A stretch of DNA of 55,715 bases, filler included, from Moniliella sp. 'wahieum' (GCA_003971905.1; 3 parts of 3 records of this genome joined end to end with filler, not necessarily neighbours in it); one strand, 5' to 3'. Counted from the first letter of the whole stretch, positions 3,217-51,265 are shown. Program-made: numbers and translations. The notes: generated from the sequence alone by a model not told the origin.

Positions 3217-3240
3217 TGACGCGTGACGCGTGAGATCTGA
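3217..3240. promoter_or_regulatory. TNA-palindrome array TGA-CGCG-TGA-CGCG-TGA-GATC-TGA upstream of SND1
   Basis: Read directly, about 260 bp 5' of the SND1 ATG. The regulatory role is inferred from position only. Confidence 0.5.
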
Positions 3241-3718
3241 GAAGAAATGGGATGGGGCGTGTGCTGGACAGGGCGAGCTATCATAGGTGTGGCAGCTATG
3301 GCTGCTACGTCCGCTTGGTTCCCTGTGGCGCAGATTGATCATTCGTGCGGTCCCGAACGCAGCATTCGACACGCTCCGTCCGACCCGCCTCCAGAGGCGG
3401 CGCGAGGCAATGCGCATGCTCTGCGAGAAGAAGTGGTGGTGGATCCTACCAGCAAGAAGTGCATTGGGCCATCCTGGTGCGCGCACAACACGCTATCCAC
3501 GGTGCAGGGGTGACCGGTGATGGCCCAGAGAGAAACGTGCGAAGAGTCTTCAGGGTTACAGAACAGATGGCCATCCCGTCGTCAGGCAATGGTGCCATAC
3601 TGTCGTTTCCAGTCAGCCATCCCGTCTCGCCACAGCAGCCCTTGCGAAGCGCTTCACTGTGTCCGCAGCAAGAGCAACAAACAGATCAAACAGAACAGAA
3701 AAAAGACATACCGTCGAG

Positions 3719-4100
3719 CTATTGCCCAATGTCGTCGTGACGGGCTTGCCGTTGGTCGTCGACGATGCAGGCGACGCAGGCGACGCGGTGAGACGAGTGG
3801 AGATGCTGGGTGCCGGCTGGAGCGCGGGCTGCCCATGCTGAGACGGGTGGAGCGCGGCGAACGCACAATTGTGGGCAACAACGGTTCATACTTGCCCCGG
3901 CGGTAGACAAAGCCGTGCGGGCCGTATCGCTCGCACGCCTGCGTGTAGAGCCAGACAACATAGAGCGCCCATACGTGGCCCACAAGGGGCACAATGCTGG
4001 CCAAGGTAGACCAGGTCCAGACGCCGCGCACCCAACCTACCCCCGCCGGGGGGCAGATAAGCGCAACCAAATAAAGCAGGACGGCTTGCCGCGTCACCAT
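3719..4100 (-). CDS. Pmp3/UPF0057-family small membrane proteolipid with C-terminal extension
   Basis: MVTRQAVLLYLVALICPPAGVGWVRG...PLVGHVWALYVV matches the Pmp3 pattern (AILxPPxGV...PGxIHAxY). Confidence 0.65.
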
Positions 4101-4674
4101 GACGGGTATGATGGCGATGCAGGGGCAGGGAAGCGGCGGTGGGGGTGGGGGTGGTGGGAGGGGAGAAGGATAAGCGGGAGGGGCAGGAGAGTTGGCCATC
4201 AATTACGCTTCACAGCCCCTTGGCTTTGATCGATCATACTGCGCCAACTCAGACTGCCCCCGCCGGGTGGCCGGCGGCCCATAGCCCCTGGCTCGCAATC
4301 AAGGCGTGTGCATTGCAGTGCTGTCAGGCTCACTCGTAGCCACCGGGCAACCTGGGTCGTCATGTAATGTCTTCCACGTAGCGAACCTGCTTTGGGGAGG
4401 GGATCGCTAGGCCTATGCTTGAAACTCAGATACACCCGCCACGGTTTGGCGCGAGGTCCCGTCTCACGAACACCTACACCCTTCCAGCCAAACAGGCCCC
4501 AGACCCCTCAGTGTGCTCGGCGGCACTTCATCTACCTCCCTTTCATACACAACCGGCTACCATATCGCAGCCATGTTCAGCATTTACCCTTCGTTGTGCA
4601 CTGGATATAAACGTTCGACAACAGATAAATACGTGTGCCCCGTTGATGATGCAGATCATGATTGACCGTTTTGG

Positions 4675-7080
4675 TCAAGCCGGTAAGGATGATGTAAAAT
4701 TATGTGCGTCGTACAGCGGTGGCGCGTTTGACGCTATAGCCGGCAGCGAGTGGTCGGGAACAAGCCTAGGGGCGGAGGCTTGCAGACTTGGCGAAGCACG
4801 CGCTTGATTGTTCTCCTCGCCCGTCAAACCCGGGTTGTTTTCCTCGGACGATAACCTGAGGCGATGCGCCCAGTCAGATGGCAACTCTCCCGGCTTGCCT
4901 TCGGAATAATCCTCGGCAATCACTGGAGTAGGAGTAAATAAAAGTGCTTGTTGCTGGGCCTTGAGCTCCTCGAGAGAAAGCCCACACACACACCGCGCAT
5001 GCTCATCTTTCCCATGCGGATTCAGTTGGGGTCGAGCCTCGACGCCCTCAAGAGGATCTGAGCGAGTGTAAAGAGGGAGAGTGACCGCGTTGTACGCCAC
5101 ACAACAGGAGGGGATCACCACAGCTTGCCGGAGCGCGAAAACCTTGATTTTGCCCTCGCCTTCGGCAAGTTCGGAAGGTGCGCCCTCAGCGCCCGTAGTC
5201 CCTTGGCGGCAATGGACGATTTCCACCAACAGGGAATGCGTGAACCGGATCGAAGCGCGCGACCCAGGCATGGTGGTCGGCCGGATCGCATTGTCATCGG
5301 GCAGGCGGACGGTGGCCTCAAGACCCCATGGCTGGTGGGAACCAGGCATGCGGATCGGGCCTTGGGCCTCGTCGCCCTCCTCGGGCTTGGTACTGCCCGG
5401 CTTGGGTGGGACCCCCTTGTTCAAAGAGGCGATGTCGCTGGACGGGTGCACGTTGCTTCCCCCTCCGTCGCGTCGTGAGATCAATTGTCGTTTCCAGTGT
5501 GACGCGACACAAGTAAACAGCGAGGTCAGGGGGGCTGAGGCGACTGGACCTCGATGTGCAGCACGCCTCCGACAGAGACTGAGGTGGAGGTGAGAGAGAA
5601 GATAGCAACCCCACAGTCGGGTGCAGGTCGTGGTACAAGATCGAGAGGGGTGTGGCGAAGAAATGCTCAGGGTTGGGAATGACAATGGGATACACCTCTG
5701 CCACATCTTCTACGTTCGATCGGGCCCGACCGCCACCGACAACAGTCGCCTTGATGGTCCACTTCACGCGACCAAACGGACTGCGTTCATAAGGTGGAGC
5801 GTCCGACGGCATAATAAACGAAAATTCAAAGCTACTCACGTCAAAAAAAGGTTAGAACCAGATGGAGAGGGAACATCAAGAGAGGGAATGGTAACGTACG
5901 CATGCTCCCCCTTAACGAGCAAGATTCCTTCACCTTCCTCGTCCGAGCCCGAGTCCGAAGTGTAATCATTCTCGCGCGTCATTGAATTGTCGCGTGCAAC
6001 CCACGTCAAATCGAGAGAAGGTCGAGGTAAAGACGAATGACGCACGCCCGACCGGCCTGTCTCACTCCGACCGCGCTGCGACAAAAACACGTTCGACCTC
6101 CCGTCTTCTCCACCACGGGGGAAGAAAGACCTCTGCGTAACCTGTTGATCGACAGCGACCGCACCCCTGCAGAAGCCGAACGGATGAGAGATGAAGGTGG
6201 GTCGGAGGGTGGATCCGACACCGGAACAGAGGGACGCTCAAGGGGAGGCTCAGGATTGGTAGGTGGTGTCAGCACAGCCGAAGGAGGGCGGGAAAATCGA
6301 GAGGAAGGGCTGCTTGTACGAGAGAAAGACAGTCCTGTTGTGGCAGGCCGCACAACCGCAGATCGGCCACGAGAACGGGAACGGGACCGGAGCTCAGGGT
6401 TATCATCGGGCGAGCGCGGGCGGGAACTATGCCCACTGCTGAGCGCTGACCGGCCGCGTGGCTCACCATCTGACTCGAGCTCGGCGACGTCGCCCAGCAC
6501 CACACCACGTGAGCGCGAGCGCGACGCATGGACAAGCGAACGGAAAGAGTTGCGGGGTCGGCGGTCGGTGCTGGAGCTGGGCCGCCCGCGGCCGGCCAGA
6601 GGCGGGGCAGATGGAGGGTGGAGGGAGAGTGCAAATCGGCGTAGGATGGCGTCTGGGAGCGGGAGCGGGAACGAGAGCGACGAGAGGACGCCGGGTGTGG
6701 GAGCGAGAGCGCCGTTGGTTTGGGGTGGACGACGCAAGCGCAGTGCCACTGCTGGTGGGGAAGGTGAGCACGCGATCAAAGGCCGCCGTCTGCTCCCAGC
6801 TGACCGCACTGTGGCTGCGGCCGAGTCGAGGATGACACGACCTGGTCCGCACGCAGACGCACGCGCACCTGCGCCACGATCCGGTCCGACGGCACGCTCA
6901 CCTCCACCACGCCACGCACCAGCTCGGCGTCGGACGCAGCGGGCGGGCTGCCGGTAAGATAGGCCCAGTCGGGCTCGTCGCCAGGGCCAGCTGGGTGGCG
7001 GCGGGAAGGGGGCTAAGGAAGATGGCGTTCTGGAGCACACGTACGCGCACGTCACATGCCTGCAGAAGCGCCGACAGCAT
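4675..7080 (-). CDS. Arrestin-like (ART) adaptor with Ser/Arg-rich insert, spliced and frameshifted
   Basis: N-terminus MLSALLQACDVRVRVLQNAIFLSP; FEFSFIMPSDAPPYERSPFGRVKWTIKATV; IRFTHSLLVEIV; PY-like motifs LPLY and PPLY near the C-terminus. Confidence 0.7.
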
Positions 7081-7213
7081 CGCCGCCGAGCGCAGCGCGG
7101 ATGCGGATGACGATGATGGGGGGGGGGGGGCGCGGGCTCTGTGTTGGTGGCGGCGGCAACGCCTGAAAACGGCGGGAGTGCGTAGGGATTTTGAAACCGA
7201 TATTCAGCACGAG

Positions 7214-7252
7214 TGACTAATGACCGGTGACCGGTGAGTGAGTACGTACTCA
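7214..7252. promoter_or_regulatory. TGA-CCGG-TGA-CCGG-TGA array plus 14-bp palindrome TGAGTACGTACTCA upstream of the arrestin gene
   Basis: Read directly, about 140 bp 5' of the ATG at 7080. Confidence 0.45.
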
Positions 7253-8475
7253 GGACGCGCTGCATCGATCCCCGACCAGATATCTGATCGACAGTGGCGG
7301 TGGACACCCTTCGCGGGCACCTGGCCTGTGCCCGCCATCGCTCACCCACCGGTGACGGTCCCTGTGGATGGCCAACCATTTTGACGGCGGGCAGAATTGC
7401 GTCATCGCTCCCAGTCCCCTCCCAGCCTTCTTGCCACACTTCCGCCAACGACGGCATCGCCGCGGTCCTGCCTCCGCTGCCCGACGGCAATGCACGCAAT
7501 GCGTCTTCGCGGCTGTTGATTCAATCGCTCTCACCTGAGCTGAACCTCCTTCCATCTCGCACTGCTGAGAAGAGCACATCAGTGCATCTCATCTGGGGGT
7601 CAGACCCCCCGCACCCGCACCTGCCCCCTGCGTGTTGGACCTGACATCACAGGGCTTCCCTGGTAACCGGTAACCGTCGACCTGGATTTCTAACCCGGGT
7701 CACCAGCATCTCTTTATAGACGAGAATCAATCATTGGGTTATTGGACGGGTTGAGCGCGTGGAGAAATACTCATTACACTCGTATGTCGTAACGAAAAAA
7801 GGTGTGGTCGTGGTAAAAGGGTGTGGGACACGCGTCTCAGTCGTGCACTAATCCCCCTTTGTGGCTGCGATGAATTTTCATGCCATTGACGATACATGAG
7901 AGGTGGTCGCCTGAGCGAGTCCGTCATTGTCCCACAGTTGTAGGCATTACCGATACACGCCTCTCATCATACGCGCAGAGCGGCCCTAGCGAAGACCGTT
8001 GTTTTTTCTACAGTGCGTGAAAGATGCTTTGAATATCATTCAGAGCTTTCCTTAAAGCGCCAACCACACTTCCGCGGGGCCTTTTCTCCCCTCATTCTAT
8101 TCACCTATCAATGAAGACCAGGATCTTGATCTAACCACGATAAGCACAGGATGGCAGTGTTGGCGTGATGGCAAAATACGCTGGTATGCCAGCTTTTCGT
8201 AATCTCTTGTCCGACTCTCTCCCCTCTGTATCCTTCCTCTGTCGAGAAGTGTCTTCTTGAAATAGAACAACCGCCTCTCCCTCATTTCCTTCGTCTTCCA
8301 CAGGCAGACAACAGAAATAGAGAGATGGACCCAAAAACGCGCTTCCTTCGCTGAATATATATAAGGATCTACGATTCATAACGTCGGTTACACTTCAAGC
8401 CGCAGTTACTCTTTAAGTAGCGCTTCATCTTCGCCAGTTAGGACTTAGGAATCAGTCTCAGTCCTGAGGACTACT

Positions 8476-8533
8476 GTAGTGACTAGTTATCGATTATCAC
8501 TGATGTAGTGACTAGTTATCGATTATCACTGAT
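8476..8533. repeat. Perfect 29-bp tandem duplication containing TGA-CTAG-TTA-TCGA-TTA
   Basis: GTAGTGACTAGTTATCGATTATCACTGAT at 8476-8504 and 8505-8533. Confidence 0.9.
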
Positions 8534-9366
8534 TAGTAGTGACTATATTAACTACTTAGTATATAACACGCAGGATGAACAGGTCGGTTTAGGCGCAGCG
8601 TTTCTTTGTCCCAGCCTTAAGCTCTGTCAATGATATAGGAGATGCAGTATGCTAACCAGTGACTAGTGACTATAGCCTTTCATAAGCGACTCATGAAAAA
8701 TGTGATTGGCTAACTTTGAACAGCTTGAAGCTTGAAGAGCTTGAAGGCACATGCATCACATGCAGTAGAACCAGAAAGAACGAATAGGGTGCAATCATGG
8801 GGGAGACACACGTTTCAAAAGCCTTAGGCCTTAAGCTTTAAAACATAAGGGAAAGATAAGACGAAATGGTGAGGACGCGGGCCGGAAAAAGTCATACATG
8901 CCCGGACCTGCTCCGATCCCCGGTTATACGTATGGGGAGCGATAGATAACAGTGACTAGTGACTAGTGACCTAGTAATAAGGATATTAGTAACTAGTAAA
9001 CAGTAAATAGGGGGGCAATCATGTTAATCACCACAGGCAACCGTAAAACTCCATGTTTGCTCATTATGCATTACGAGGGGACCACCGGGCCTAGTACGGC
9101 CCGCACTGGGTACCTTATTTTGAGGAGGTGATTTACCGGAGTCTGTTGTATTTTGCAGGTCTCCTGGGGCTTCGCCTGAACATGTCTCTCCATGTTGATC
9201 CGAAGGTCCCCGGCCATTTCTCCCCCTCGTCCACTGTCCCTAGTCAGATATTCACGTGAAGCACTGCATAACTCCGTCGATTTTCTCTATGAAAATGACG
9301 TTTTTCGTCTCAGAATTGCAGAGGTTGCAAAATGTCAGGCACCACAGTGTGTAAGTGCGAAAATGT

Positions 9367-9526
9367 GGCGCCTGACAGATGGTGACCTCTGACAGTTTGG
9401 GCGCGGGGCCTGTGTGCTGGAATGCATCAGAGTTTACGCTGGCCCGTCTGAAACGTGCGGAGGGCGAAGGGAGGTGCCTGACGGTTGGTGACCTCTGACA
9501 GTTTGGGTGCGGGGCCAGTGTCCTGG
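9367..9526. repeat. 54-bp imperfect direct repeat, copies offset by 106 bp
   Basis: 9367-9420 versus 9473-9526, sharing the core TGGTGACCTCTGACAGTTTGGG. Confidence 0.85.
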
Positions 9527-10467
9527 CGGTGCCAGCTCGAAAGGATCGGCATGGGGGCTACTTACTAATGAGCCCGCATGTGCCGCCCGCTAACACCGCA
9601 TGTGCCATGTGACATGTGACACACGCTAACGCCCCATGCGGCAACGGATGTGACAGGGTCCGAGGCGGGGAATGTTCCGTGCGGGGTGGAGCCAGAGTGC
9701 AACCGCGGTGGCATCATGCATCACCGGGATGGGGCATTGCATGTACGTGTGAGGGTGGGTTACAATGGGTGTGTGACATGCGACGCGCTGTGGACGCCGC
9801 GGTTTGGTGACGATGGTACGCCCGACAGGCGACCGCATCCACGTGCGTTACCGGGGAGCGTTGAATGTTGAACGCCGGGGCTGGCCTGGAGCTGCAAAAG
9901 CGTGACGCGCAATGCTTGCAGCTGCTGCCAAGATGCCGCGTGCCGGAGCGGGGTGGCGGCCTCCTGCGGAGGAGGACGCAGTGGCGCAGGGTGTGCGCTC
10001 AGGTACATCGTTGGCAGCGCGCTCCCGCACGTCCCTCAGGCCCCAGCGCTCAGTCTGAGCTGCCAGTGCTGAACGCCCAGCGCCCAGGCCTCAGGCCTTC
10101 AACGTTCAGGCCTTCGGTCCAGCTCGGTTGGGATTCACTGCAAAAGTGCGGCCCTGCTGTACTGCCGGGTGGGCCTGGGGGTGCAAATGCCAACTGTGTT
10201 TCGATGCATGCTGCAGATCAGGACAGTGCACACCAGTGCGCTGAGCTTGCCCTGAGCAAATATAGCCGGCCCTCCAACGCTGCTTGCGCCGTGTCCAGTC
10301 CCGACTCTGGGCTGTGGCCATCCGACCGCTGTCCACCGCTGTGCGCGCTGCCGGCGCAGCGCATCTGATGTTGGTGTGCGCAAACCATTAATCCAGCGCC
10401 GCCACCCCCCCCACCTCCACTCCCGCAGCCTGTCCCACCACCACCACCACTTCTTCCACCACCACTT

Positions 10468-11623
10468 TCACCCCACCACCACCCATGTCACCATGCATGG
10501 CCGTCTCGTGGTGAGCATCGTCCATATCCGTGCTTCAGTTGGCGCTAGCACACCTCTATGCGCGTTGCCCCTGATCGTGAGGCAGATGCAGCATCTGATG
10601 CATGCCTCCAACAGTGCTTGCTTACCGTTGGTAGCATGCCAAATGTGAGCCAGAACGGATGAGAGACGGCTGAGATATCGCCATTTTGGTCCCGCCGGCA
10701 TACGCCACCATCTCATCCCAGCATGCATCGATCCCAGCCGCTCCCGCTCAGGTGCACGCCTCATCCAAGCCTCCCGCCAGCGTACTCCCTCGCCTTCCAC
10801 CAGGGCAGGCCTACATCGACTACCATCTGCATCTGTCCACCAGCTGAAGCGATGGTGCACAGCAGGTCCAAACACGGGCAGGTGGGTGTTGATGGCGCCG
10901 CCGCTCCACCAGTTGTCGTCGGATGTCAGAGATCGTCGCGCCCCATCGTGCACTACAAGCAGGGCTTCCAGGGGAGGTAAGGCGCTCCAGGATTGGTCCA
11001 GCATTGAGGTCAGAACACGCCCCAACATCTGATGTTAGCTTGATTCGGATGAGGGTCTATGTTGACGGCGCCGGCACAGCACCAATCCTCATCAAACAAT
11101 AGATTGCATACATGCCCATCTTGCTTCAGAAGCAGGGCTTCCATGGGAGGTCGGGGGCACGCAGATTGGGCCCGGATTGGGGTCACACCACATGTGAACA
11201 TCAGAGGTTAGGTCCAAACAGCGGATGGTCGATGGTTGATGCTGCCGGCGTTCAACCAATTCTGGACGAATCAGGATCTGTAACGGTGTAGCGTAGCCCA
11301 GAATCAAGAGTTCAGAATGATGATGCGCTTTTGATTCGGTCCAGGATTGAGGTTACACCACATCCAATTACCTCAGGTGCGGTCCAGACGGCGCACGGTC
11401 CCAACAAACAGCGTCGGTGCCCCACCAATTTGGGACGAGTCAGAGCACGAGTGGTGGGGTAGCGTGCCCCAGGTAGTCCTCTTTCAGACGCGCACGCGTG
11501 GGGCGCAAGACGATGCACCACGATGGAGAACGGGCGTGTGGCGGTGGATGCGTTGGTGGTGGTGGCGGCTTGCTCGATTTGGTGGCGGCCGAGCCAATCT
11601 GACCGCGCAGGCTGCGCGTGCAT
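10468..11623 (-). CDS. Hypothetical protein with an internal repeat of about 55-60 aa (frameshifted)
   Basis: PPLEALLVVHDGARRSLTSDDNWWSGGAIN versus PPMEALLLKQDGHVCNLLFDEDWCCAGAVN; CGVTSILDRIKS / CGVTPIRAQS / RVLTSMLDQSWS. Confidence 0.4.
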
Positions 11624-12555
11624 CGGTGCAATTGCAAATGTTAATATTGTGAGCCAGCGGCGGATGAATGCACGGGCCAGGCGACGGATCTGGTTGGTTT
11701 CTTACCACGCCCCCCCCAACCCGGCTGGCTTTGCCCGCCCCCCAAGGTCTGTTGCCTCGTTTCACCCCTCGTTTTGAGCCTCCTTTCCCCCATTCGGTGC
11801 CTCCCGCGCCTCATCTGCCACACACCGGCCCTCTACTGACCCTCTCGCCTCTGTGTCTTCTGTCCAGCTTCTGGGTCTCTGCAGGTACTGCCCGCCACCC
11901 CGGCGCTCTTTCCCACGTCCCCCTGCCTCCCCACCCGTCCCAGCGCCGCGCTCCTGCCTCCCACCCCCGCCCAGGCCATCCCCGCCATTGACTCGGCCAC
12001 CACCGCCATTCATTCGGCCACCACCATCATTCATTCGGCCATCGCCACCGTCGGGTCGGGCAAGCGGAAGCATGGGATGGTGCAGGGGATGGTGCATGCC
12101 TGCTGGCCGTCCATGGTCACAGCCTCGCCTGCCCCCACCACTGCCGCGCTTGAGTTGGTTGTCTGGACGCTTGGCTTGGCCATCCGGATCCTCGTCTTGG
12201 CCATCTTCGTTCCAGGCTCGGCCATGCCAACGCATACCGTGCAGCGTGCCATGCCGTCCCGTTTGGACGCTCTGCCGGCCCATGTGCACTCGCTTGGCGA
12301 ACCTGCTGTCACCCTGCTTGGGATGCTCATCCCAACCGCCGTCTTGGCCATGTGCAACCTGAGCGCATCGGTACGCATCCCATCCCATTCCATCCCATGC
12401 CACCCTACCTCATTCTGACCCGCTCTTGCACCAGTGTTCTGCCTCTCATCCTTCCGCTCTCCCTCGTCATTGCCCCCATCCCAACGCTCGTCGGGCCATG
12501 CTCAAGCTCGAGTAGGCCATGTGCAAGTACCACGTCGTGCTCTGTCTGTTGCGTC

Positions 12556-12690
12556 CAAGCTTGCGCTCGCCATCAATCTTGTGCTCACCATGTCCAAGCC
12601 TGCGCTCTCTCCCCAAGCGTGTGCTCGCCACCAAGCCTGTGCTCATCATCTCCAAGCCTGTGCTCGCCATCTCCACGCCTCTGCTCCCCC
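12556..12690. repeat. Degenerate 18-21 bp minisatellite (CCAAGCCTGTGCTCGCCAT-like)
   Basis: About 6-7 recognisable copies in tandem. Confidence 0.7.
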
Positions 12691-14685
12691 GTCTTGAACA
12701 TCAAGCATGTATAGGAACATAGCAATGCATACCATCATCCAGCCTACCTCTCCATGCACTCTAGTACATGTACCACAGAAGCATCCGAGCACCTGTCATA
12801 GATGTTGAAGCGTACAATGACGACGACCGTCGTGGGTCTTTGAGGCGAGCATAACAACGACTGTCCCAGTTTGTCAAGCGCTTCATGGCATGCACTTGCA
12901 TAGATGATCAACAGGCGTACCAGAGCAAGTATCAACGGTGTTCCAACGAAACAACAGCATGACTTTCGGACGGTATCAATGCCATCTTTAATGCAATTGC
13001 GGACGCTGTTTGAGGAGCAAATGTACATTGTTCGGACATGCGAACTGGGTGTATACCAGCAACTTCTGCTCGTGTTTCCAAGCACCGTAGGACCAACGTT
13101 GGAGATGTTTGAACTGCCACCCACTTGGGTTTTGACGACAGATCTGCATACGTTTGAGAAGCAAATGTACATTGTTGAGGCATGCGAACTAGGACCATCA
13201 AATCGACGTGCGTACATGTTTCGATGCACCATCCAACGAACATTAGACAAGTTTGCGCTGGCAATCATATGACGTTTGACAGCTCTTCTCCAACGGTGTA
13301 ACAGCGAATCGTAATGATGTTTGCAAGCAAGTATGACCGACTTGGCAAGATGTTCAACGTACCAGCATGTTGCAAACGGTGTAGCGCACACTGTTCAGAT
13401 GTGTACCAGCATCGAACCGACATGTGTTATGGCAGACCGTGGGCGACTCTGACGGATGTATGCACTGCTACCAACGTGGTGTTTGGCACACAATCACTGC
13501 TGTTCCACCGTAACATCAAGCGATCATTGAGTGCACATGACACTGACGTTGTTCGTTGAGCAGACGGATCACAGCAGATGGTTTCGCACATGTGCAAGAG
13601 CAGTATGGCAATGCATCCCATCGCGTTGGTACATGCATGCTGTAGAAGGAACGGCATATCCGTTCGTCATTCGTACAAGCTATTACCAGCACCATTGCAA
13701 TCTGACGCCAACGTTCACTGCCATAGGCACAGGAGCTGACGGATAGCAATGCAGCCAACCGCATTCGTCCACATCAGTGTCTACTGCACAAACGCAACAG
13801 CATCAACAGCGTTGACATGCAGTCGAACAGGACCAGGATCGAGCAGACCGAACGACATGTACAGCAGGTGCAACGCATACTGTACTGACTTAAGAAGAGG
13901 TCATTGCCTACGACGTAGCATCACAACGGATGCAGGTGTACTGCACTGGTATTCAACTGAACAGGATGACCTGGTATACGCATCGACTGTATGACGCTGA
14001 CGAGCATTGAACGTTACTGCATGTGAACAAGGCGTTCAACCATTGCACATGGGAACAGACTAACGCGAACAGCATGAGGATCAGCAGACCAAGCATGGCT
14101 TTGATGTGCATTCAATGCTGTACTGCACCACGAACAGATGCTTGCATACGGCCTAGCATCAGCATGCATCCAATGCATTGGAACGCAGATGTACTGCAGG
14201 TGTTAAGGAACTGAACAGCACCCACTGGTATTGGCGTTGACGGTACACGATGAGATGCATTGAGCAATGCTGTACTTGCACAAGGCAATGGTACATTGGT
14301 CGTTGCATCAGGCAGACATGCCCCGCGAAGGCACAGTTGACGATGAACGACAGTGGCAGATGCAACGGTATGTCATGCGCACCACGCTAGCATACGGCAT
14401 AGGATGGGAGTATGTGCACGAGGAAGATGGGGAGAGGGCAGTGTGTACAAGCAGTACGGTCGACGGGTAACGGCTGGGAGTATGAACAGAGCAGTGTGCA
14501 TGATGAGATGGATGTGTACAGCAAGTGGAGCAGGATGGGGTAGGGAGCATGGATGACTGGTATTGGGAACGGTATGCTTGGTGTGTAGGGCAGTGGAGCG
14601 AAGGAGGAGAGCATGTAGAGGGAGTGCGTAAGGAGGAACGCTGTGTCGTATGGTAGAGGGTAGTATGGAATGGGTATGCATGTGT

Positions 14686-14917
14686 GGTAACCGCTAGTGG
14701 GTATTGAGATGTGAGTGAGGGTGGGTGAGTAGAATAGGAGTGTAAGGGGAGTGTAGGGTATGTGAGGGTGATGGTAGGAGTGATATGGGGTGGTAGGAGG
14801 GTGGGAGAGTGAGAGGGGAGGGGTGTTGAGTGGGTGTGGGAGAGGGAGGTAGCAGTAGTATAGGGTAGTGTAGATAAATAGTAGAGGGTGGGAGGGTGGG
14901 TAACCGCTTGTGGTATG
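14686..14917 (+). repeat. G-rich, C-depleted low-complexity tract at the contig end
   Basis: Only one C between 14695 and 14903. Bracketed by two GGTAACCGCT(A/T)GTGG copies starting at 14686 and 14899. Confidence 0.7.
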
Positions 14918-16006: not shown

Positions 16007-16040
<34 letters not shown>

Positions 16041-16062
16041 AGTGAAGAGATTCAACCAAGCG

Positions 16063-16117
<55 letters not shown>

Positions 16118-16169
16118 TTAATTCGTGACGCGCATGAATGGATTAACGAGACTCCCACTGTCCCTATCT
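15018..16169 (+). rRNA. Partial 28S (LSU) rRNA, 5' end cut by the contig start, 3' end truncated at 16169
   Basis: Conserved LSU blocks: GAAGTCGGAATCCGCTAAGGAGTGTGTAACAACTCACC, GCAGATCTTGGTGG, GATCCGTAACTT, GACTGTCTAATTAAAACATAGCATTGCG, CTCTTAAGGTAGCCAAATGCCTCGTCAT, CGCGCATGAATGGATTAACGAG. Confidence 0.97.
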
Positions 16170-40554: not shown

Positions 40555-40571
40555 TCAGATCTCAGATCTCA
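40555..40571. repeat. TCA-GATC-TCA-GATC-TCA array within a cluster of related units (40340-40660)
   Basis: Read directly, in the divergent intergenic region between the SNARE and the permease. Confidence 0.8.
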
Positions 40572-41973
40572 GACCGTAGGTATGTTGGAGGACGTTTCGT
40601 GTCTTGCTCCAACAAATGACGTGCTCGTTTTCTCCCCCAAAGTTGACTGACATGTGACACGTTGACCCCGCCCCCCAGTCCTGTGCTGCACACAAGACTG
40701 TACATTCGGTTGGTGTACCGATCACATCCCTCGGTGGGCATTTCGTACCTATGGGCAAACCTGCATCCACAGTTGATTATTGCTGTGGCTTTACACGAGT
40801 TTTAACCCTGTCTCCACAAAAGCTTCGTAAAAGTAGTAGGATGCGACTCGGTAAGAAATATATGGCCCCTTGAGTCTGAGGCACCGCGCTCCACACTACT
40901 TGGGATGAATTCGCCGCGCAAGATTCGTCCAGATGGCATGGCTGGCATCATGGCAGTAGTGGGTGTGGGTGTGGTCATATACCGCAGGGGGGCTATGGCG
41001 TTGGGTGCAGTAAGTATAGGATGGCGCGTGGTGGAGGGCTTGAAGCTGGAAGTTCAAGCGTCTGCCAGCAGCGCCGTCTCGGTGCCTTTGATTGATGCGC
41101 GGGGACATGGACAGTAGATCCATCGGCGCAGACACGCTCTAAGGCCGAAGGGGGGAAAGGCTTGGTGACTCTACTGTGTCGAGCGAAAAAGAGAAAACAA
41201 AAATTGATCATCGATGATTAATGATTGCGTGTCACCGGTCACCGTCTCACCACACTGGCCACACTCCTCCTCTCCCACAAGGCGCTGAACCTCCGGTCCA
41301 AGGCACGGCGCCTGTGCCCCCGCATCCAGCCTCGTATCCGTTTGTCCCGTGGTGCGAGCTATTTTGCCGAAGCGGCGGGACCAGGAACCACTAACCAGCA
41401 GCGCCCAGGCCTGCCAGGTGTCAGCACATGCCGTGAGGCACTCGTGAGGCCTGAGGCCCTGTTAGATCGTAGCGCTTACAGCCGGCATCTGCCTGCTGTG
41501 GTTTGGGTAAGATTGCGTGCGCGCTGCGTGAGACCGCCTTTTCATCCGTGCACTGTCCAGTCGCCTCCCTAATCCCACAGCCACACGCCAAAACTATAGT
41601 GCCTTCTGCCTCTTGCCTCCCTCTGTCTCTGAGCAGGAGTGTGCGTGGCGGGCCTCCCAAAATTCTCTCTGACGCGGGTTTATTTATAAGAGGCAACATC
41701 CCCCCGACTCCACACCTCTTTTTGTTCTTTCCCGCTTCAAACACCCGCACCCTACTCTCGTCCCTCTACCGCTTTGCCCGACCCAGCAAGCAGCCAATTC
41801 GCACAAGATCTTCACTTGGTGTGCCGTGTGCTTTCCTTCCGTGGCCCGACGCCCACCTCTCGAACCTTGAAGCTTCTCCCTAGCCCCCTTCGCACCAAGC
41901 TTCAACAAGAACCTTCGCCCATTTACCGTCCATATCACTCCATCTCGTGCACATTTCCGCCCACACTTTTCCC

Positions 41974-43569
41974 ATGTCGGTCTACAGTCCTCATTCGGAT
42001 AAGTTCTCCGGCGATCACAGCCCAAGCGCAGGCTACGATCAAACATCCATCTCAAGCAAGAACGGCTACAGCCACGCCAAGGGAGAAGGCCACCCGGACC
42101 AGACCATTGAGGAGGCCTTTTTTGACCCGAAAATGCTGATTCTGCCAAATACAAAAAGTTGTCCTGGTTTCAACTGGGCTTGCTCTTGCTCGTCGAGGCG
42201 GTTGCGCTTGGCAGTTTGTCCCTCCCAGCATCCTACGACACGGTCGGCATGGTAGCCGGTGTGATTATCACCTTTGTCGTTGGGCTCCTCACCCTCTACA
42301 CCGCCTATGTTGTGGGCGCGGCCAGCAACAAATATGCTGACCGTGTGGTCTCTTACAATGATCTGGTTGCCCTTATGTGGGGGCCTTGGGGCGGTGAGCT
42401 GTGCGGAATTGCCTTCGTCGTCTTCCTAACGCTCGCCAACGGTAGCCACGCTCTCACGGGCGCCATTGCATTGGAGACAATTTCCGATCAGCGGGGGTGC
42501 AACCTTCTCTGGTCTGGTGTCTCTGCCATCGTCTTGTTTATCCTCGCCCTGCCCCGATCCTTTTCTGAGCAATCCTGGCTTGGCGTGGCCGACTTTATCA
42601 GCATCATCACCAGCATCTTGATTACCATCATTGCTACTGGTACGTCTTTTCTTCCTCTCCCAAACTCATTCAGCGTCCTAGTGTATATCTCTTTACTGAT
42701 TCTCGTTTTTGCTCCACACCAGGTGTGTCTTCCCACGGTGGTAAGGGAATTGATATCTGGGTCGGCGCCCCGACCAACCCAAGCCCTCCATTTTCTGAAG
42801 TAATTGTGGGGTTGTCAACATCGCCTTTGCCTTCAGTTTTGTAGTCAACCAACCCTCGTTCCAAACCGAACTCAAGAACCGTAAAGACTACATGAAGGTA
42901 CATGAACATCCCCCCCCTGATTTGGCATTACCTCCATTAGCCACAGGATACTGACCCGGGTGCCTCTGCTAGTCGGTTTCGTTGCTGATGGCAGCGGAGT
43001 GGATCATCTACATTCTGACTGGCGCCTTGATTTACGCCTTCGTGGGCAAGGGGTGCCTTCCCCTGCGCTTCTGGCATCTAGCCACACTGTTCGTCGGTCG
43101 GATTTGGTATTGCTTTGGTCGTCATCTTTGTGTCGGGCTCGATCAACACGGTTGCAGCTGCCCGTTATGTGCATCACCGCATCTTCAAAAACACGCCTCA
43201 CAAGTACATCTCGACCCCTCTTGGAATTGGGGCGTGGGTGGCGATTGTATTTGGCTTGACCGTGATTGGCTGGTGGTTGCTGAGGCCATCCCGGCATTCA
43301 GCCTCATTCTTAGCATCATCTCTGCCATTTGTGTGTCCGGCTTCTCGTTCTATTTGCCAGGCTTCATTTGGTTCTACCTCTTGCGCGAAGGCGCCTGGAA
43401 CAGCTCGGCCAAGAACATCGCACTGAGCATCCTCAACACTTTCCTTATTCTTCTTGGATTCTTCTTCTTTGTCGGAGGGATGTATGGCTCGGTGGTTCAG
43501 CTGCGGGACACATACCGTCACAACGAGGCCAGTACGCCCTTCTCGTGCCAGTGGAACCACAGGTCATGA
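41974..43569 (+). CDS. AAAP-family (Mtr-like) neutral amino-acid permease, with two introns (~42640-42722, ~42898-42971)
   Basis: LSWFQLGLLLLVEAVALGSLSLPASYDTVGMVAG, GSHALTG, NIAFAFSF, ELKNRKDY, VPSPALL, VAEAIPAFS. Confidence 0.88.
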
Positions 43570-44366
43570 GAGGCGGCTCTTTTTTGCTGATGTGTGGAGA
43601 TGCTGCAACCCCATCTTTTTTTACCCACCTGGACCGGTCGCTATTACCCCCTCCTTTCTCTCTAGCGTTTACGTTGGTTGCGATGTTCATCACGACTTGA
43701 TCTTAATGCAGTGTGTGCGAAACAAAACGAACTCAAAGTGTATAGTAGCCATACCTGTTTTTATAGCAGGTTACAGCAGGTTGTAGTATATGTGACCCAT
43801 CTCTGTGGTCACGTGCAACGGGGCTGCATTAACGCCAGCGCTCTGTCTTGCAGTGGGAGGGTTGGGTGTGTTTTTGGGTTAAATTAGTATAGCCGCTGCT
43901 CGCGTTCGCTCTCGGCTGTTCTTGGCCACATCAGTTCCCACTTCCTCCTCGGTCGCTTGTGCGTCTGCCTTCGTCCTCCCACACCACCACACTCTCCGAG
44001 CCCCTGTGTGCTGGATCAGGTCCGATGCCCTCCCCTGTCCTGGTTTCGGCGGACCACGCCGACGCGGAGCACAGCCACTGTGCATCAAGCACTTGGGCAC
44101 CCCCCCTGGCAGTCGTATTGCCATCACCACGACCGTCCCATGCCAGGAGGCAGAATCCCCCCTTCCTTCTGACGTTACCGACGACACCCAGATTGGTGAT
44201 GGTACCCCCCTCGCTGTCTCCTCGTCGAGACCAATGAACGCACCCCTCGTCTTCACCCCCCGCCCCAATTCCTAATCAATTACCACTTCTGTCGCCTACC
44301 ATTAGCGTGGACGGTTCACGCGAAAATCCACACCATCAGCACAGCCTCACCACCGACGAAGGCAAT

Positions 44367-47300
44367 ATGGCTTCCAAGTTACCATTCACCCTTCCAGGCG
44401 TGATCGAAGGGGATAGTGGCACGCATACATTAGTGGTCGAGACGGGATTGTCTAACGTCCAACGCCAGCTTGTGGCCCAAGACTCTGAATCCTCTTCATC
44501 TCTCAACACTTTTACTCGTCCTAACGGCCGAGATCCCCCGAATGACAGTTCGCTGGATGAGTCCCAATGTCTGGACGCTCTTCGGCCTCACAAATCAACC
44601 AACGGTTTGAGTCTCAAGAGAACTGAGGGATACATCGAAGCCCTGAGGAATCAAAAGTGATCTGAAGCGCGAGGTTTTCCACTTGCGCAGCCAACTGAGC
44701 AACATAAAGAACAGCCGAAAGTGGTCATCCAGCTCATTGAGGCACAGAACATATTGCCAAGCTGCGCAATCAGAACGAGAAAATGAAAAAGAGTATATCA
44801 TTATGTGATCGTCAGATCAAGTGCCTTAAGACCGAACGCGATAAGCCGAAGGCCCACCAGTCCCCAACAACAGAGGTACGTGTTTCTCACTTCTTTCCCT
44901 GATTACTATCATATACTTTTCTCAGTTATTATATCTCTTTAATCAACCTGTTGGTTCTCGTTTGTTAATAATTCTCTCTCGTTGATTCTTATTCGCAGGA
45001 ATTGTTGGACCAACTCAAGAAAGAGCATGCCAAGGAGCTTTCCCAGATCAAGGCGGAGCGGGATCAACTCTCTCTCAAACTGGCTGACACGAATTGCCGC
45101 TTGGATAAGACAATCCTCATCAGACTTGACACGGCAACACAACCAGGAGATTGAAGAGGCCCCCCGTGCTCAAGTTGGGGAACTGGAACGTGAACTCGCG
45201 TTGGCGTTGCAGAGTCGGTGGGAGGAACAAGAGGACCTGTTGAACCAACAAAATAAAGAGTTGAAGGAACGACTTGCTGCCTTGGAGCTCAGAGCAACAG
45301 AACAGCGATCATCTGCTGATGTAATTCTCAAGCCCGTCCGTCTTTCCCAATTCGACGAAGCCTATGATCAATTGCGAACCGAGCTGAACGTTGCTCACAC
45401 ACTCCGGATCAAGGCGGAGGAACAAGTCAAGTGGGAGCATGACGAAGTCATAAGGTTACGTCGCCAATGCGAGCAGAAGGCCAGTACAGGATCAACTTTT
45501 GTTTTCTATCGAGGATAATCAACGCAAGGCCAACAATGACATTGAACTGGCGCGTGCCTTTCAACTTGCGCAAGAAGAAGAGTGAAGATGCTGGAAAAAT
45601 TGAGAAAATCAGAGACAGAGGCGGCTCACTGGGAAAACCAAGCCAAGCATCTGCAAGACCAGCTGGTCAACCGTGATATCGACCTTGATACGGCGAGCCG
45701 TCAAATGGCCGAGAGTCGGGGCAAGTGCAAAAACTGGAAATCTGGATTGAAGATCGTGATGCTCGCCTCCATGCTCAAGGGGAAGAGATCGAGCGACTGC
45801 AACATGAGTTGAGGGGGGCCCAGGCCAAGTTTCAATCAGCGGAGCTATTCAACGAATCGCTCCGAGCTAGACTCGCTACTGCCCAAGAGAACAATGCGAC
45901 CCTCGACAATCGCTTGGTCGAGAGCAACACAAGATTGAGATACATCAAGCCGAAGAGGAAGCCCAAGCTGAAACGGCCCAGAAGACGCGTGCCGAGTTGA
46001 GTACAGTCAAAGCTGATTTGGCCACTGCGATTGAGCGTCTCGGCAGTGAGCAGCGTGCCGCTGCCCAGAAGATGCAAGATACAAGGCCGAGTCGTAGGCA
46101 CGTGAGGACGAATATCGAGTCAAAGCAGTCGAAAAAGAGCATGAGTGCAGATTGCTGGACAAAGCGCTAGAGGAGCTCAAGTCACGGATGCAGCAACAGG
46201 TTCAGGACCAGCTTCAAGCCGAACTCGCAGTGCTGCAAGCACACAATGTAGAATCGTTTGCCGCCGAGAAGCACATGTTGGATCTTGAGATCGATCGCCT
46301 CCAGAGTAAAATTGCAGAGCTTGAGCGCGAGCTGGAGAAATGCACCAAGGAAGTGGAACGGAAGTCTGACTTGGTGGAGAAAGACCTAGGTTGGACCCAG
46401 CGGTACGCTTCTTTCTTCTCTCTCTTTTCTTTACTGGATCGGGGTGGCATCTCACTGATCTATTCTCTTTAACTCTCTTTGTGCGTGCAGAAGGCCAAGC
46501 TTTGTGAACTTGCAGGTAAATTGTCGGCGGAAGAGCAAGTGAGCAAAGGCTTCTCGGAACGGTTCGACGTGCAAAGCCGGGCCTTGTTGAAGGCACAAGA
46601 AGAATTCGGACGGGCTCAGGCCAAACTGGAAAGTGTGGAACAGTTCGGCAGATGAGACGCGTAACCAACGCCGATCAGTGAACAAGTTGCCCAGCAGCTC
46701 AAGGAACGCGATGTGTTGCTGATGCACATCTACCAGCAACTGGGTCGTGTCATGGGGCCCGCGGAATGGAGCCAGCATGCACACGAGGACGACGCATTTA
46801 CCAACTTCCCCTCTTAAATGAGCGCATCATGACTCTTCGAAGAGTGTGAGCGATACGTGTACAGTTCGAACAACGCATCAAGGGTATCGAGGATAATATC
46901 ACAGATCGTTTTAGGTAGGGCTCCCTCCCCCCCAAGGTATATACTCGGTCTCACCTGCTTACATTCGATTCTCACTCGTTTTCCTCTTTTTCGGTTCTCC
47001 ATACGGTACATCGGCAAAAAGACGCAAATACTGCACGGATCAACCAGCTAGAGACATCCATCGAGATGATTAAGGACAAACAGAGTCTGTGGCACACCGT
47101 ATCGCAGCCAAACAGGCTGAGCTGGACGCTCTCCGCTCGGCTAACAACGAGCTGCAGATCCAAATCGGGTCAATGAAGTCGGCCCAGAGAATGGCGACGA
47201 TGGGACGAGTGTTAAGCCCGAATACGAACTCATCGCCCACCACTCCAGCTAGTTTGGAAAGCATGTTGACCGTTGCAAAGCACCAGCTGGCTGAGACTGA

Positions 47301-48687: not shown

Positions 48688-49096
48688 GACCGTGATGGAA
48701 GTGAAGGTGGGGCTGCCGGTCAGAAGAACAAGACAATCCAATCCATCGGTAACCGGTAAGACAGTACGGGCTATTATGTAATGGTGCCGATGGGCCAGGG
48801 CTGTGTGCCCCTAGACGAGCTTCCTTCAAGCTGCACTAACACTCGCACTCAGCAAGTTACGTATGGGTCTATGGATGGGCACGAGAGAAGGGTGGCCAAC
48901 GCCCCTGAACAGCCAAGTCGGGACAATTTTGGGGGAGTGCAACATATGCATGTGCATGTGCTCAGGCCTTGATTATCGCCTCACCAGGGCCATGGGCATG
49001 TGCGCCAGCCGATCATCCAACAGACAAGGGAGGCACAGGTTGTCCCATCATTCCATGAGACACCCCACCACGAGCATCAATAGACCACGGGACTAT

Positions 49097-50201
49097 TTAA
49101 GGAGCGTGGAGGAACTCAAGGAACTTGGGTTGAGCGCCAGCTTGGCCGGCTTGGCAGCGGGCTTGTAGGTGCCAGCAGCCTTGGCGGCGCGGACGTCAGC
49201 CTCGATCTTGCGCTGCACCTTGGCGTACGGGTTAAGACGGTCCATGACGAACTTGTTGCGTAGCGGGTTCTTCTTCTGGTGAAGGGGCGCTTGGTCGCCT
49301 TGGGCCAGCCGGACGAAGCACAGCCTGGATCTCCTCCGAAGCTAGCAGACGCGACACGTCCGTGTTGGTATCTGGCGCGGGGAAGGACGAAGCCCTTCTT
49401 CTGCGCCGAGGCAGCATCGTAGGTGCCAAAGATCGAGTCGAGCTGCTTGAAGGCGGCCTCGGTCCAGATCACAAGCGGCCAAGGTGACCACCGGGCGCGA
49501 GCTGAGGAGGTTAAGGCGGTGAACCGACACGAGCTCCACACCGGGCAGTTGCGGAAAGCGCGGTAGATGCCCTTGTCCTCGTTGTACACAACGAGGGGGC
49601 CGCGGCGCTGCACGTGACGACGGTTGCGCATCTTGCCCTGGCCACGCGGATCTTGCGCGAGTTGGACACCTTGAGCACATCGTCGTAGGCGTTGAGCGCC
49701 TTGAGGAGGGCAACCGCCTCCTTGGTCTTCGAGTAGGACTCGACCTCGGTGGGACACGAGGGGGACCTCGGCAACCTGCTCACGCGGTGCCGCGGGCGAG
49801 AACGAGGGACGGCACGGCGGTCGCAGCCAGAGCCGAAGCATCGCAAACGCTTCTGGTTCTGGTTCGTCTTCACCCCCAGCGGCGCCACACCTTGGTGGGA
49901 GCGAACATGTGACCGCCACGGGCCATGTACCGAACGCAGCCTGGCCATCACGGTGGGTGCCCGAGCCGCCCACACGAGGGATACGGGCCAGAGCACGGCC
50001 GGTGCCCCACGACTCGGCCGAGGTCTGGTGGCCAGCCTTGGTGGAAACGGCTAGGTTGGCGCTTGTTCTTGGCCACCTGGGTGTAAGTATAACTGCACCA
50101 CGTAGGAGCGATCGGAGCGGTGAGAACGGCGGGCAGCGGCAGGCTTGCCCGCTGGCACTGCCGTCAGCAGCGCGGACACTGACAGTCGCACGCGAGGCCA
50201 T
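49097..50201 (-). CDS. RPL4: 60S ribosomal protein L4 (uL4)
   Basis: MASRATVSV, AGHQTSAESWGTGRALARIPRVGGSGTHR, GKMRNRRHVQRRGPLVVY, IWTEAAFKQLD. Many indel errors. Confidence 0.96.
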
Positions 50202-51248
50202 GATGTTTGGAGAAGGTGCTGCTTGGTGGCGAGCCGTCCCGACGCTGCCAGCTGCCACCCCCCCGGCCACCAGCGGCCGTTCGGCGGGGCAGCGGCACCA
50301 ACACAGGCGCAGTGCCTACACTGGAAAGCAACTGCGGCAGTGCTGGCGCTGCGGAAATCATTGCGCCGGGGGAACAACCCTAGTGAATATTGATGTCCCT
50401 CCGGGACCATGCTGGCTCGGTGATTACGCGCACGGTGATGTGCCATTGGCGCTCAATCACATGTCACAACCTCCACATGGTTGGCTTCCCCGCATGGGCA
50501 CCTCAGCCTGCTTCGCTAACTTTCGTTCCATAGGTGGCGTATGATTTGTAGCCTGGCACCTGTGGACGAGGTGGAGGGAAACCAGCTCGCTGCTCCCATT
50601 TCCCAGTGAATCCTCCAGTGGATGATGCAGCCAGCCGTCCCTGCTCCCAACGTCTCCTTCTGGCTCTTTTACCGTGGCTGTAACGGACGGATGCGGGGTA
50701 GATAGTGTTGTGCCTGATGTAGCTGGAGGTTCCGAAAAGCTCAAGACCCAACAAGCGTCGCATGCACTGGCTCATCTATTTCGCCTGTCAGGACCTCATT
50801 CTTATCTTTTTGGTGAGCACTGCTGCGTCAACGACGGATCTGTGGACCGGACGCGGAGGAGCTGTGGCTAGCAAAGGCGATGTTGGTTTAAAGCCCGTGA
50901 TGCATCATTTCCGTCGGCAGCACTGCGTGGACGCACCTGCGAGAAAGAGACGGTTGCGGGTGGATTGTCGCCTGGTGGAGAGGGCATGGCCTGGACATGG
51001 GGCAGGCATATATAGCGTGGTTTAGCTGAAGGGTGGCGCTGCTCTGGTGCAGCATGTGGAGCGTCCGGCAGGCACCGGGCGGGGGTAGCATGAGGCGAGT
51101 GTGGGGGAGCCGCGCAGACACTGCCGCGTGGCGCCGCTCTGCTGCGGCTGGAGCGCAGACGTGGCATGGCTGGCGTGCGGCCTGGCTGCGCCCGGTTGCC
51201 ACCGGCCACGGCGCCACCCGGAGCGGAAGCGCCGGCTGCAGGCTGCTG

Positions 51249-51265
51249 TGACATGTGACGCGTGA
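51249..51265. promoter_or_regulatory. TGA-CATG-TGA-CGCG-TGA array upstream of HMG-CoA reductase
   Basis: Read directly, about 220 bp 5' of the ATG at 51482. Confidence 0.5.

Follow-up and report, generated by a model that had tools for sequence, protein, structure and literature searches.

Flank-mirroring TNA arrays in a Moniliella genome are probably excision footprints of a hairpin-leaving, 7-bp-duplicating element

What could hold the symmetry and phase of a short DNA array constant while leaving its sequence free to change? The question arose in a stretch of 55,715 bases from Moniliella sp. 'wahieum' (GCA_003971905.1), here called the window, in which copies of the triplet TNA stand 7 bases apart around a 4-bp palindrome that differs from site to site. 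The window comprises three contigs (1-14917, 15018-29017, and 29118-55715) joined by N runs around artificial TTAATTAATTAA spacers; 2 of the 70 raw TNA-palindrome-TNA matches were such spacers and were excluded. A sequence-only reading had quoted strings of this kind at 24 positions, and all of them are present, the one at 25656 in an imperfect form broken by single-base irregularities. Judging from the structure of the arrays, we conclude that they are probably scars left by the excision of a TNA-centred cut-and-paste element that duplicates 7 bp and leaves hairpins, probably a low-copy transposon.

Excess and specificity of palindrome-spaced TNA pairs

The spacer was palindromic in 68 of the 160 TNA-NNNN-TNA strings on the contigs, against a background of 6.0% palindromes among all 4-mers. 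The sequence-only reading had suggested comparing palindromic with nonpalindromic spacers under a dinucleotide-shuffled null; 300 dinucleotide-preserving shuffles gave 6.8 ± 2.9 TNA-palindrome-TNA links, so that the observed 68 lie far beyond chance. Where the same TNA stood on both sides, 55 of 93 spacers were palindromic (2.06 ± 1.44 expected from 300 dinucleotide shuffles). The N of the two triplets was identical in 55 of the 68 links, complementary in 7, and otherwise different in 6. We counted 13 palindromes in same-N links and 14 overall, with TATA and GTAC unused, which makes an earlier count of twelve of the 16 possible palindromes slightly low.

The spacing was equally specific. Same-TNA pairs at distance 7 numbered 93 (32.0 expected), and this was the sole enriched distance between 3 and 14; all others had observed/expected ratios of 0.8 to 1.3. 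The excess at distance 7 fell entirely among palindromic spacers (55 vs 1.6 expected), and the 60 non-TNA triplets with a palindromic spacer showed no enrichment (68 vs 56.8). Exact tandem duplications gave the same picture, with 34 of period 7 and 3 each of periods 8 and 9; period-7 arrays of at least 13 bases were dominated by xyTNAy'x' units.

A 12-base pattern describing the minimal event set out below, which includes a 5-base direct repeat, occurred 61 times (0.27 expected), or 1.09 per kb. In 80 unrelated metagenome loci totalling 711,399 bases, the same pattern was found 13 times (0.018 per kb), indicating that it belongs to this genome and not to DNA in general. These loci came from a metagenome scan with the catalytic part of the window's methionyl-tRNA synthetase (MetRS), at no more than 75% identity, and serve as a negative control only; a metagenome scan with the C-terminal part of MetRS returned nothing related.

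Searches that presupposed no triplet led back to TNA. An unbiased scan for 5+2+5 repeats found 252, in 73 of which the 2-base filler was an inverted copy of the first or last two bases. Among the 80 oriented matches, 60 had T at position 3 together with A at position 5; TNA stood at positions 1 to 3 in 8, mostly other phases of the (TCGATGA)n array at 19385. A relaxed 4+3+4 scan gave 65 matches when the key position held A (1.2 expected) and 8 when it did not (5.6 expected, chance level), and T preceded in 60 of the 65 A-bearing matches; thus both T and A are needed. Outside T-N-A, the reconstructed sites were near background, with a mild preference for G before T and C after A (39 of 88 vs 28%), and the central N followed background composition. 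With no consensus beyond T-N-A, the flanks are arbitrary, which explains why any palindrome can appear.

Not all distance-7 pairs were of this type. Beside the 55 palindromic ones, the 93 same-TNA pairs included 1 independent exact 7-bp duplication, 1 variant with a 1-nt inverted filler, and 9 in which one half of the spacer matched a flank, some of them (8438 and 9862) one base short of a palindrome; 27 matched nothing, approximately the number expected by chance. Palindromic spacers of 6 bp occurred in 3 cases, 2 of them independent.

Each event adds a direct repeat and an inverted flank copy

We grouped the links into 54 chains, 41 of which carry one identical N throughout. We call the left flank mirrored if the two bases before the first TNA are identical with the closing half of the first palindrome, which is so in 25 of these 41 same-N chains, and the right flank mirrored if the two bases after the last TNA are identical with the opening half of the last palindrome, which is so in 19. 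Mirroring on one side or both is seen in 34 of 41, compared with 12% by chance (binomial P values for flank mirroring, 3e-20 and 8e-13). Of the 33 same-N chains that have two TNA, 7 mirror both flanks and 6 mirror neither; the other 20 comprise 11 with the left flank alone mirrored and 9 with the right flank alone, which makes the two mirror products similarly frequent. Because exactly one flank is mirrored in most two-TNA chains, the palindrome must have been made by the event and not read from the target.

Hence, in its minimal form, the event turns xyTNAcd into xyTNA(y'x'xy)TNAcd or into the mirror image of that product, xyTNA(cdd'c')TNAcd. Either product is longer by 7 bases, of which 5 are a direct repeat of the site and 2 an inverted copy of a flank. 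Each event also creates a second TNA, so that later events add left-flank palindromes on the left and right-flank palindromes on the right. Eight of the 11 chains with at least three TNA consist of exactly that order, left-flank palindrome(s) followed by right-flank palindrome(s); the exceptions are 8824 and 29745, each off by one flank base, and 7221, which departs outright. This left/right grammar explains how different palindromes come to be mixed in register within a single array.

These results bear out the view of the sequence-only reading that symmetry and phase, not a fixed sequence, are the conserved property, and that neither a simple transcription-factor consensus nor a microsatellite accounts for the arrays. 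The arrays show no flank-independent consensus beyond the spacing, as an array of transcription-factor sites would, the 13 palindromes being predicted by their flanks. Slippage-born micro- and minisatellites likewise have tandem 7-bp units, and the array at 19389 may have grown partly by slippage, but the unit here is limited to TNA plus a flank-mirroring palindrome and most loci have just two TNA.

Several simpler schemes were rejected. Palindromes made of leftover transposon ends would not mirror a flank in 34 of 41 chains, and simple doubling of a palindromic 7-bp target disagrees with the finding that both flanks are in register in just 7 of 33. A 4-bp palindromic duplication with a TNA remnant fails to explain why N is identical in 55 of 68 links. 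We also discarded a 3-bp duplication with hairpins, since neither TNATNA (32 vs 32.9 expected) nor TNATN'A (22 vs 33.2) is in excess, as well as schemes that retain both overhangs (0 cases) or make a 6-bp palindromic spacer (3 cases).

Proposed origin of the scars

Under the mechanism that we propose, a low-copy cut-and-paste transposon would duplicate 7 bp centred on TNA (nnTNAnn) upon insertion, and its excision would leave two hairpin-capped flanks, as with hAT, Transib, MULE, and RAG. A host nuclease of the Artemis/Pso2 kind would then nick each hairpin 2 nt from its tip, yielding the 4-nt palindromic 3' overhangs cdd'c' and y'x'xy. One overhang would be ligated to the recessed 5' end of the other flank, and the unused overhang would be removed as a flap. 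The scheme would give exactly the two mirror-image products observed and no others. As T pairs with A, opening a hairpin at +3 would give the same product as opening at +2, and since every event makes a second TNA, repeated hits would build arrays.

Parts of this scheme have precedents. Passages of PMC5499845 describe flank hairpins of hAT, Transib, MULE, and RAG that are joined by nonhomologous end joining with footprints. In vitro, according to the relevant part of PMC2175297, the main site at which Artemis:DNA-PKcs opens hairpins is 2 nt 3' of the tip, with 3' overhangs of 4 nt in inverted-repeat form as the dominant products. P nucleotides occur in Ac/Ds footprints in Candida, and Pso2 is implicated in yeast (PMC5873905, in the section on footprints). 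Duplications of 7 bp are known in basidiomycetes from hAT7, a hAT family of rusts, and from Kyakuja of Agaricomycotina (PMC12730594, in excerpt).

The length assigned to the duplication depends on how the product is divided. The period of 7 and the symmetry about N agree with a duplication of 7 bp in which 2 bases were replaced, and also with a 5+2 or 4+3 division. Read as 5 bp, the duplication is asymmetric (xyTNA or TNAcd) and the sister product expected of a symmetric enzyme is missing, which favours the 7-bp reading; xyTNAcd is symmetric about N, so one target gives both products.

Known systems resemble the window in part. Footprints of flank-hairpin transposons (hAT Ac/Ds and Hermes, Transib, MULE) and V(D)J coding joints also show a direct target repeat around the joint, together with short inverted flank copies (P nucleotides) at it, and the dominant +2 opening by Artemis, as given in part of PMC2175297, equals the 2-nt arm of the window palindromes. 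They differ in that the period here is 7, not 8, 9, or 5, and in that a single outcome makes up ∼90% of detectable events and the donor element was not found, whereas the published sets are heterogeneous. On the 7-bp reading, the basidiomycete DNA transposons hAT7, a member of a superfamily that makes flank hairpins, and Kyakuja, which both duplicate 7 bp, would be comparable; they are described from Pucciniales and Agaricomycotina, and the string "Ustilag" is absent from the main text of PMC12730594. No hAT7- or Kyakuja-type element or transposase was found in the window.

Footprints of Tc1/mariner elements, formed by the duplication plus leftover transposon end bases, have the same duplication-palindrome-duplication layout (background in PMC4423477), but their palindrome would be constant within a family and unrelated to the flank, whereas the window has 13 kinds that mirror a flank in 34 of 41 chains. 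The T-N-A core is shared with another group, from which the window event differs in duplicating at least 5 bases, with 3-bp signatures at or below chance. PIF/Harbinger and IS5-type elements prefer a T-N-A core target and make 3-bp TNA/TWA duplications. For Harbinger, target duplications of 3 bp are also listed in part of PMC12730594.

Several points weigh against excision of a transposon. The sequence-only reading had suggested looking for elements flanked by 7-bp duplications; we found 0 candidates with inverted ends and such a duplication in the 55.7-kb window, and no intact 7-bp duplication around an element was seen there. Pfam searches of 82 open reading frames (ORFs) of at least 150 aa and 150 of the 167 ORFs of 95 to 149 aa identified no transposase family. 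Fifty-five kilobases are a small sample of the genome, and a low-copy element would be missed anyway. Among the scars of this one window there is no before/after pair in the form of an empty site, an occupied site, or a polymorphism. The product is also unusually uniform: ∼55 of ∼60 non-chance same-TNA pairs (∼90%) are of one type, compared with 28 footprint types in 128 Ac/Ds excisions in Candida (from a portion of PMC5873905) and with rice excisions that were "perfect" in 8 of 94 cases, the rest having deletions or filler (PMC4423477). When we looked for a wider spectrum of outcomes, including variable P length and filler, nothing was enriched among same-TNA pairs besides distance 7 with a 4-bp palindrome, deletion outcomes being undetectable by the scan; both overhangs were retained (TNA-palindrome-palindrome-TNA) in 0 cases in the window. 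In classical hAT elements the duplication is 8 bp long with the consensus nTnnnnAn, in which T and A are the second base from either end, and the palindrome left behind is centred on the complement of the adjacent base. In the window, T and A occupy the third place from either end of the inferred duplication and are separated by one base, the centre of the palindrome is the junction itself, and same-TNA pairs at distance 8 are not in excess (31 vs 34.1). A duplication of 5 bp with 2 inverted bases, or of 4 with 3, gives the same sequence, making the 7-bp reading an argument from symmetry only, and the T-N-A requirement could belong to hairpin opening or ligation rather than to insertion. Finally, homopolymer indel errors are present in the assembly.

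Alternative explanations

The sequence-only reading had offered three candidate causes. Insertion-excision footprints fit best among them, without the palindromic 7-bp target that it had attached to the idea, as both flanks are mirrored in only 7 of 33 chains. A different origin, which we consider unlikely, requires no mobile element to move. The scars would be the work of an endogenous nuclease, perhaps a domesticated hairpin-forming transposase or a transposase in abortive attacks, that breaks TNA in accessible chromatin with a stagger and with hairpin caps, and the same stereotyped repair would follow. The missing donor, a uniformity of products that is unusual for ordinary transposon excision, and the ratio of 37 perfect to ∼15 above-chance one-mismatch loci, suggestive of current activity, all speak for such an enzyme. 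Yet a break with no inserted element does not itself duplicate 5 to 7 bases directly, which is the hallmark of staggered insertion followed by removal, and no candidate gene was found in the window. It is distinctly improbable, in our estimate, that a resident nonmobile hairpin-forming nuclease (a domesticated hAT- or RAG-like transposase) or a hyperactive single-copy element keeps reopening TNA in nucleosome-free promoter DNA. If this were true, a fixed +2 opening and direct ligation would make the +7 insertion with a flank palindrome the dominant insertion type of the lineage, and the system would be a promoter-directed mutator, self-reinforcing as each hit doubles the target and continually making new palindromic promoter sequence.

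That the arrays are selected promoter or origin elements, whose symmetry and 7-bp phase are read by a protein or through DNA structure, appears very doubtful. Their position is what recommends the idea: by a crude annotation, divergent gaps (8.7 kb) hold 18 same-N chains, tandem gaps 4, and convergent gaps 0, and chains stand 120 to 700 bp upstream of RPL4, HMG-CoA reductase, ATP23, the permease, and SND1. However, the palindrome is set by the neighbouring bases and not chosen, the 13 to 14 palindromes share no consensus beyond TNA, two-TNA units are almost without predicted hairpin stability, and one-mismatch relics are above chance (25 loci vs ∼10.6 matches expected). Noncoding-looking stretches of 0.7 to 1.4 kb, together at least 2.9 kb, are scar-free, and hAT insertion prefers open promoter DNA, so position alone is no sign of function. 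We rate as very improbable that replication or repair switched templates at short quasi-palindromes by snap-back or polymerase-theta-like insertion, with no site-specific enzyme. Snap-back synthesis can produce bases that are templated by the flank and partly inverted, as these are, but it gives a spread of sizes and sites and leaves the strict T-N-A requirement unexplained; that requirement (65 vs 1.2 with A; 8 vs 5.6 without) and the single +7 size point to recognition by a protein, and a 1-nt snap-back loop at TNA would be sterically implausible. An assembly or base-calling artefact is scarcely credible. Homopolymer frameshifts do interrupt an essential gene of the assembly, but the errors seen are single-base homopolymer changes only, no known error mode inserts 7 structured, flank-templated bases at TNA while sparing coding DNA, and scars recur faithfully in each arm of an inverted repeat and each copy of a tandem duplication.

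Placement and age of the scars

Scars avoid coding DNA. Only 3 of the 41 same-N chains touch coding-like bases, which make up 29% of bases by codon scoring (P = 7e-4); the depletion is partly trivial, because a +7 insertion with TGA or TAA breaks the frame. The sequence-only reading had noticed none in conserved coding regions, which nearly holds: one same-N pair lies in MetRS (38048), a number that chance allows. Its further statement that arrays lie upstream of most genes is suggestive only, given the bias to divergent gaps in a crude annotation. By gap class, with strands crudely assigned, same-N chains number 18 in 8.7 kb of divergent, 4 in 9.9 kb of tandem, and 0 in 3.2 kb of convergent DNA. 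This suggests a bias toward gene-upstream DNA, which would be expected anyway of a hAT-like element since Hermes inserts in nucleosome-free regions, recognizing NTNNNNAN (PMC13273895, in part). Insertion into open chromatin together with local hopping would account for the clusters in some gene-upstream regions.

The distribution is patchy. Scar-bearing ORF-poor stretches hold 29 chains on 527 TNA sites and scar-free ones hold 355 TNA sites, in a division made after the chain positions had been seen. The scar-free segments 43569-44943, 17804-18546, and 16170-16949 look noncoding by codon periodicity. Two-TNA units have a mean predicted DNA minimum free energy of −0.87 kcal/mol (n = 36), that is, no meaningful hairpin. 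The structure-reading promoter or origin element of the sequence-only reading is not supported, on these grounds and on the derivation of the palindromes from their flanks.

Perfect 12-base patterns occupy 37 loci. One-mismatch versions that do not touch perfect loci occupy another 25, the excess over the ∼10.6 expected matches indicating that the pattern decays; two-mismatch versions were not above chance after removal of overlaps. That perfect copies outnumber relics suggests recent or continuing activity, or deletion of old copies. Some scars are older than local rearrangements: they are mirrored in both arms of the inverted repeat at 29801-30024 and must predate the inverted duplication, and one chain is present in both copies of a 29-bp tandem duplication near 8472-8529, which it likewise predates.

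Chains in the window

Chains are given below on the strand presented, with flanking bases in lowercase; "mirrored" refers to the flank as defined above.

3217-3240: cg-TGA.CGCG-TGA.CGCG-TGA.GATC-TGA-ga; left palindrome mirrors the left flank and right palindrome the right; fits the grammar
3511-3520: gg-TGA.CCGG-TGA-tg; left flank only mirrored
6440-6449: gc-TGA.GCGC-TGA-cc; left mirrored; in an ORF-rich stretch
7221-7237: aa-TGA.CCGG-TGA.CCGG-TGA-gt; the sole multiunit chain with neither flank mirrored
7664-7673: gg-TAA.CCGG-TAA-cc; both mirrored
8480-8525: ag-TGA.CTAG-TTA.TCGA-TTA-tc in two copies (8480-8496 and 8509-8525); fits the flank grammar
8660-8669: ag-TGA.CTAG-TGA-ct; both mirrored
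8726-8735: ct-TGA.AGCT-TGA-ag; both mirrored
8824-8840: cc-TTA.GGCC-TTA.AGCT-TTA-aa; left mirrored, right one base off
8953-8969: ag-TGA.CTAG-TGA.CTAG-TGA-cc; fits the grammar
8990-8999: ag-TAA.CTAG-TAA-ac; left mirrored
9064-9073: ca-TTA.TGCA-TTA-cg; left mirrored
9610-9619: tg-TGA.CATG-TGA-ca; both mirrored
9714-9723: ca-TCA.TGCA-TCA-cc; left mirrored
10099-10108: ct-TCA.ACGT-TCA-gg; neither flank fully mirrored
19300-19309: ga-TCA.TCGA-TCA-gg; left mirrored
19389-19419: ga-(TGA.TCGA)x4-TGA-gg; the longest array, with five TGA; fits the grammar; slippage may have added units
25664-25688: TGA.CCGG-TGA, two links (25664 and 25679) in the irregular array from 25656
29713-29761: TGA.TGCA-TGA (29713), TGA.TCGA-TGA (29723), and ct-TGA.AGCT-TGA.CGCG-TGA-ca (29745)
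29801-30024: inverted repeat; arms of 79 nt (29801-29879, 29946-30024; 97%) around a central 66 nt
31616-31664: ct-TCA.AGCT-TCA at 31616 and 31655; left mirrored
31837-31846: aa-TAA.AGCT-TAA-ga; unmirrored
32698-32707: gt-TCA.ACGT-TCA-ac; both mirrored
33474-33483: cg-TAA.CGCG-TAA-cg; both mirrored
33525-33534: tg-TTA.ATAT-TTA-at; right mirrored
33771-33780: ca-TCA.GGCC-TCA-gg; right mirrored
38048-38057: tc-TGA.CGCG-TGA-tc within MetRS coding sequence; neither flank mirrored; probably due to chance and not a scar
40555-40571: tc-TCA.GATC-TCA.GATC-TCA-ga; fits the grammar
40648-40657: ac-TGA.CATG-TGA-ca; right mirrored
41208-41241: ga-TCA.TCGA-TGA.TTAA-TGA-tt, which fits the grammar with a differing first N, plus tg-TCA.CCGG-TCA-cc (41232)
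41445-41454: cg-TGA.GGCC-TGA-gg; right mirrored
48750-48759: gg-TAA.CCGG-TAA-ga; left mirrored; ∼545 bp upstream of the Pfam-supported ATP23 (M76) coding stretch
50384-50466: TGA.ATAT-TGA (50384) and TCA.CATG-TCA (50457), ∼180 and 253 bp upstream of the likely RPL4 start near 50204
51249-51265: tg-TGA.CATG-TGA.CGCG-TGA-cg; exact fit to the grammar; between RPL4 (−) and the HMG-CoA reductase gene (+)

The 29-bp tandem duplication spans 8472-8529, and both of its copies hold the TGA.CTAG-TTA.TCGA-TTA chain. In the inverted repeat at 29801-30024, period-7 units are mirror-imaged in both arms (29857, 29927, 29959, 30016, and others). By eye, the arms continue outward with one single-base indel, and many dispersed TGTGACA/TGTCACA heptamers surround the repeat (29760-30075). 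We did not call it a transposon, as no matching duplication is present at its ends; the 29760-30075 region may be a relic of the foldback type, or a scar-rich stretch that was duplicated in inverted orientation. Another repeat, C/T-rich and CCCCCCTCTTCTTGTCCT-like, has five copies of ∼20 bp at 31022-31142.

Host, gene content, and assembly quality

The window is nuclear DNA of a smut-related fungus. Pfam matches identified pieces of an SND1-type nuclease, MetRS, an amino-acid permease, ATP23 (M76), ribosomal L4, and HMG-CoA reductase. Over 283 C-terminal residues of MetRS, the nearest named species are Malassezia species (43 to 49%) and Tilletiaria anomala (46%). The public proteins P0001 and P0002 are 83% and 79% identical to the C-terminal part of the window MetRS, so closer relatives of the fungus are present in public assemblies. 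The host belongs to a poorly sampled lineage of Ustilaginomycotina.

Aligned with P0001, MetRS (37191-39347, +) falls into four pieces that abut one another, use three frames, and leave no gap the size of an intron. The frame shifts near 37253, 37888-37903, and 38494 have their junctions in T, C, and A homopolymers; they are probably single-base errors of the assembly, which would amount to ∼3 over 2.1 kb of this essential gene. Such homopolymer frameshifts in the assembly account for fragmented ORFs. They may also break some arrays (25656 and 8953), and the single-base irregularities in the array from 25656 may be assembly errors of this sort; they are unable to create flank-templated 7-base insertions at TNA. 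Annotation is correspondingly weak: Pfam gave few matches for the 82 plus 150 ORFs, self-trained codon scoring covered only ∼15.5 kb, and the strand and gap classes are crude.

Two contig ends have unusual content. Contig 2 starts with a large-subunit rRNA fragment in three pieces (15036-16169, +; Rfam RF02543, model positions 1173 to 2350 of 3401), which ends at 16169 and is followed by non-rDNA; it could mark the edge of an rDNA array, a truncated copy, or a chimeric join. Contig 1 ends in noncoding DNA without any TNA scar (13395-14917), with abundant CA/TG words in 13395-14390 and strong C depletion in 14391-14917 (C 7%, G 46%). This end may be a hypermutated repeat relic or chromosome-end-type sequence.

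Implications

The notable points are the density of scars, the uniformity of the product, and the missing donor. Our targeted literature search found no prior description of such arrays in Ustilaginomycotina, a statement that holds for that search only, and a TNA-centred 7-bp target, to which the scars would point, is not described for hAT in the literature that we consulted. If the excision reading is true, one enzyme-driven event type has left ∼1 recognizable scar per kb of the window, marking ∼5% of TNA sites (29 of 527) in the scar-bearing ORF-poor stretches, as divided post hoc. By a rough estimate that assumes neutral decay and a lifetime for the 12-base pattern, +7 insertions would be a few per cent as frequent as noncoding base substitutions. 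These events would then be a leading insertion class and a steady source of new palindromes in gene-upstream regions, and the scars would constitute a natural record of hairpin opening and end joining in a basidiomycete, with opening at position +2 and little trimming.

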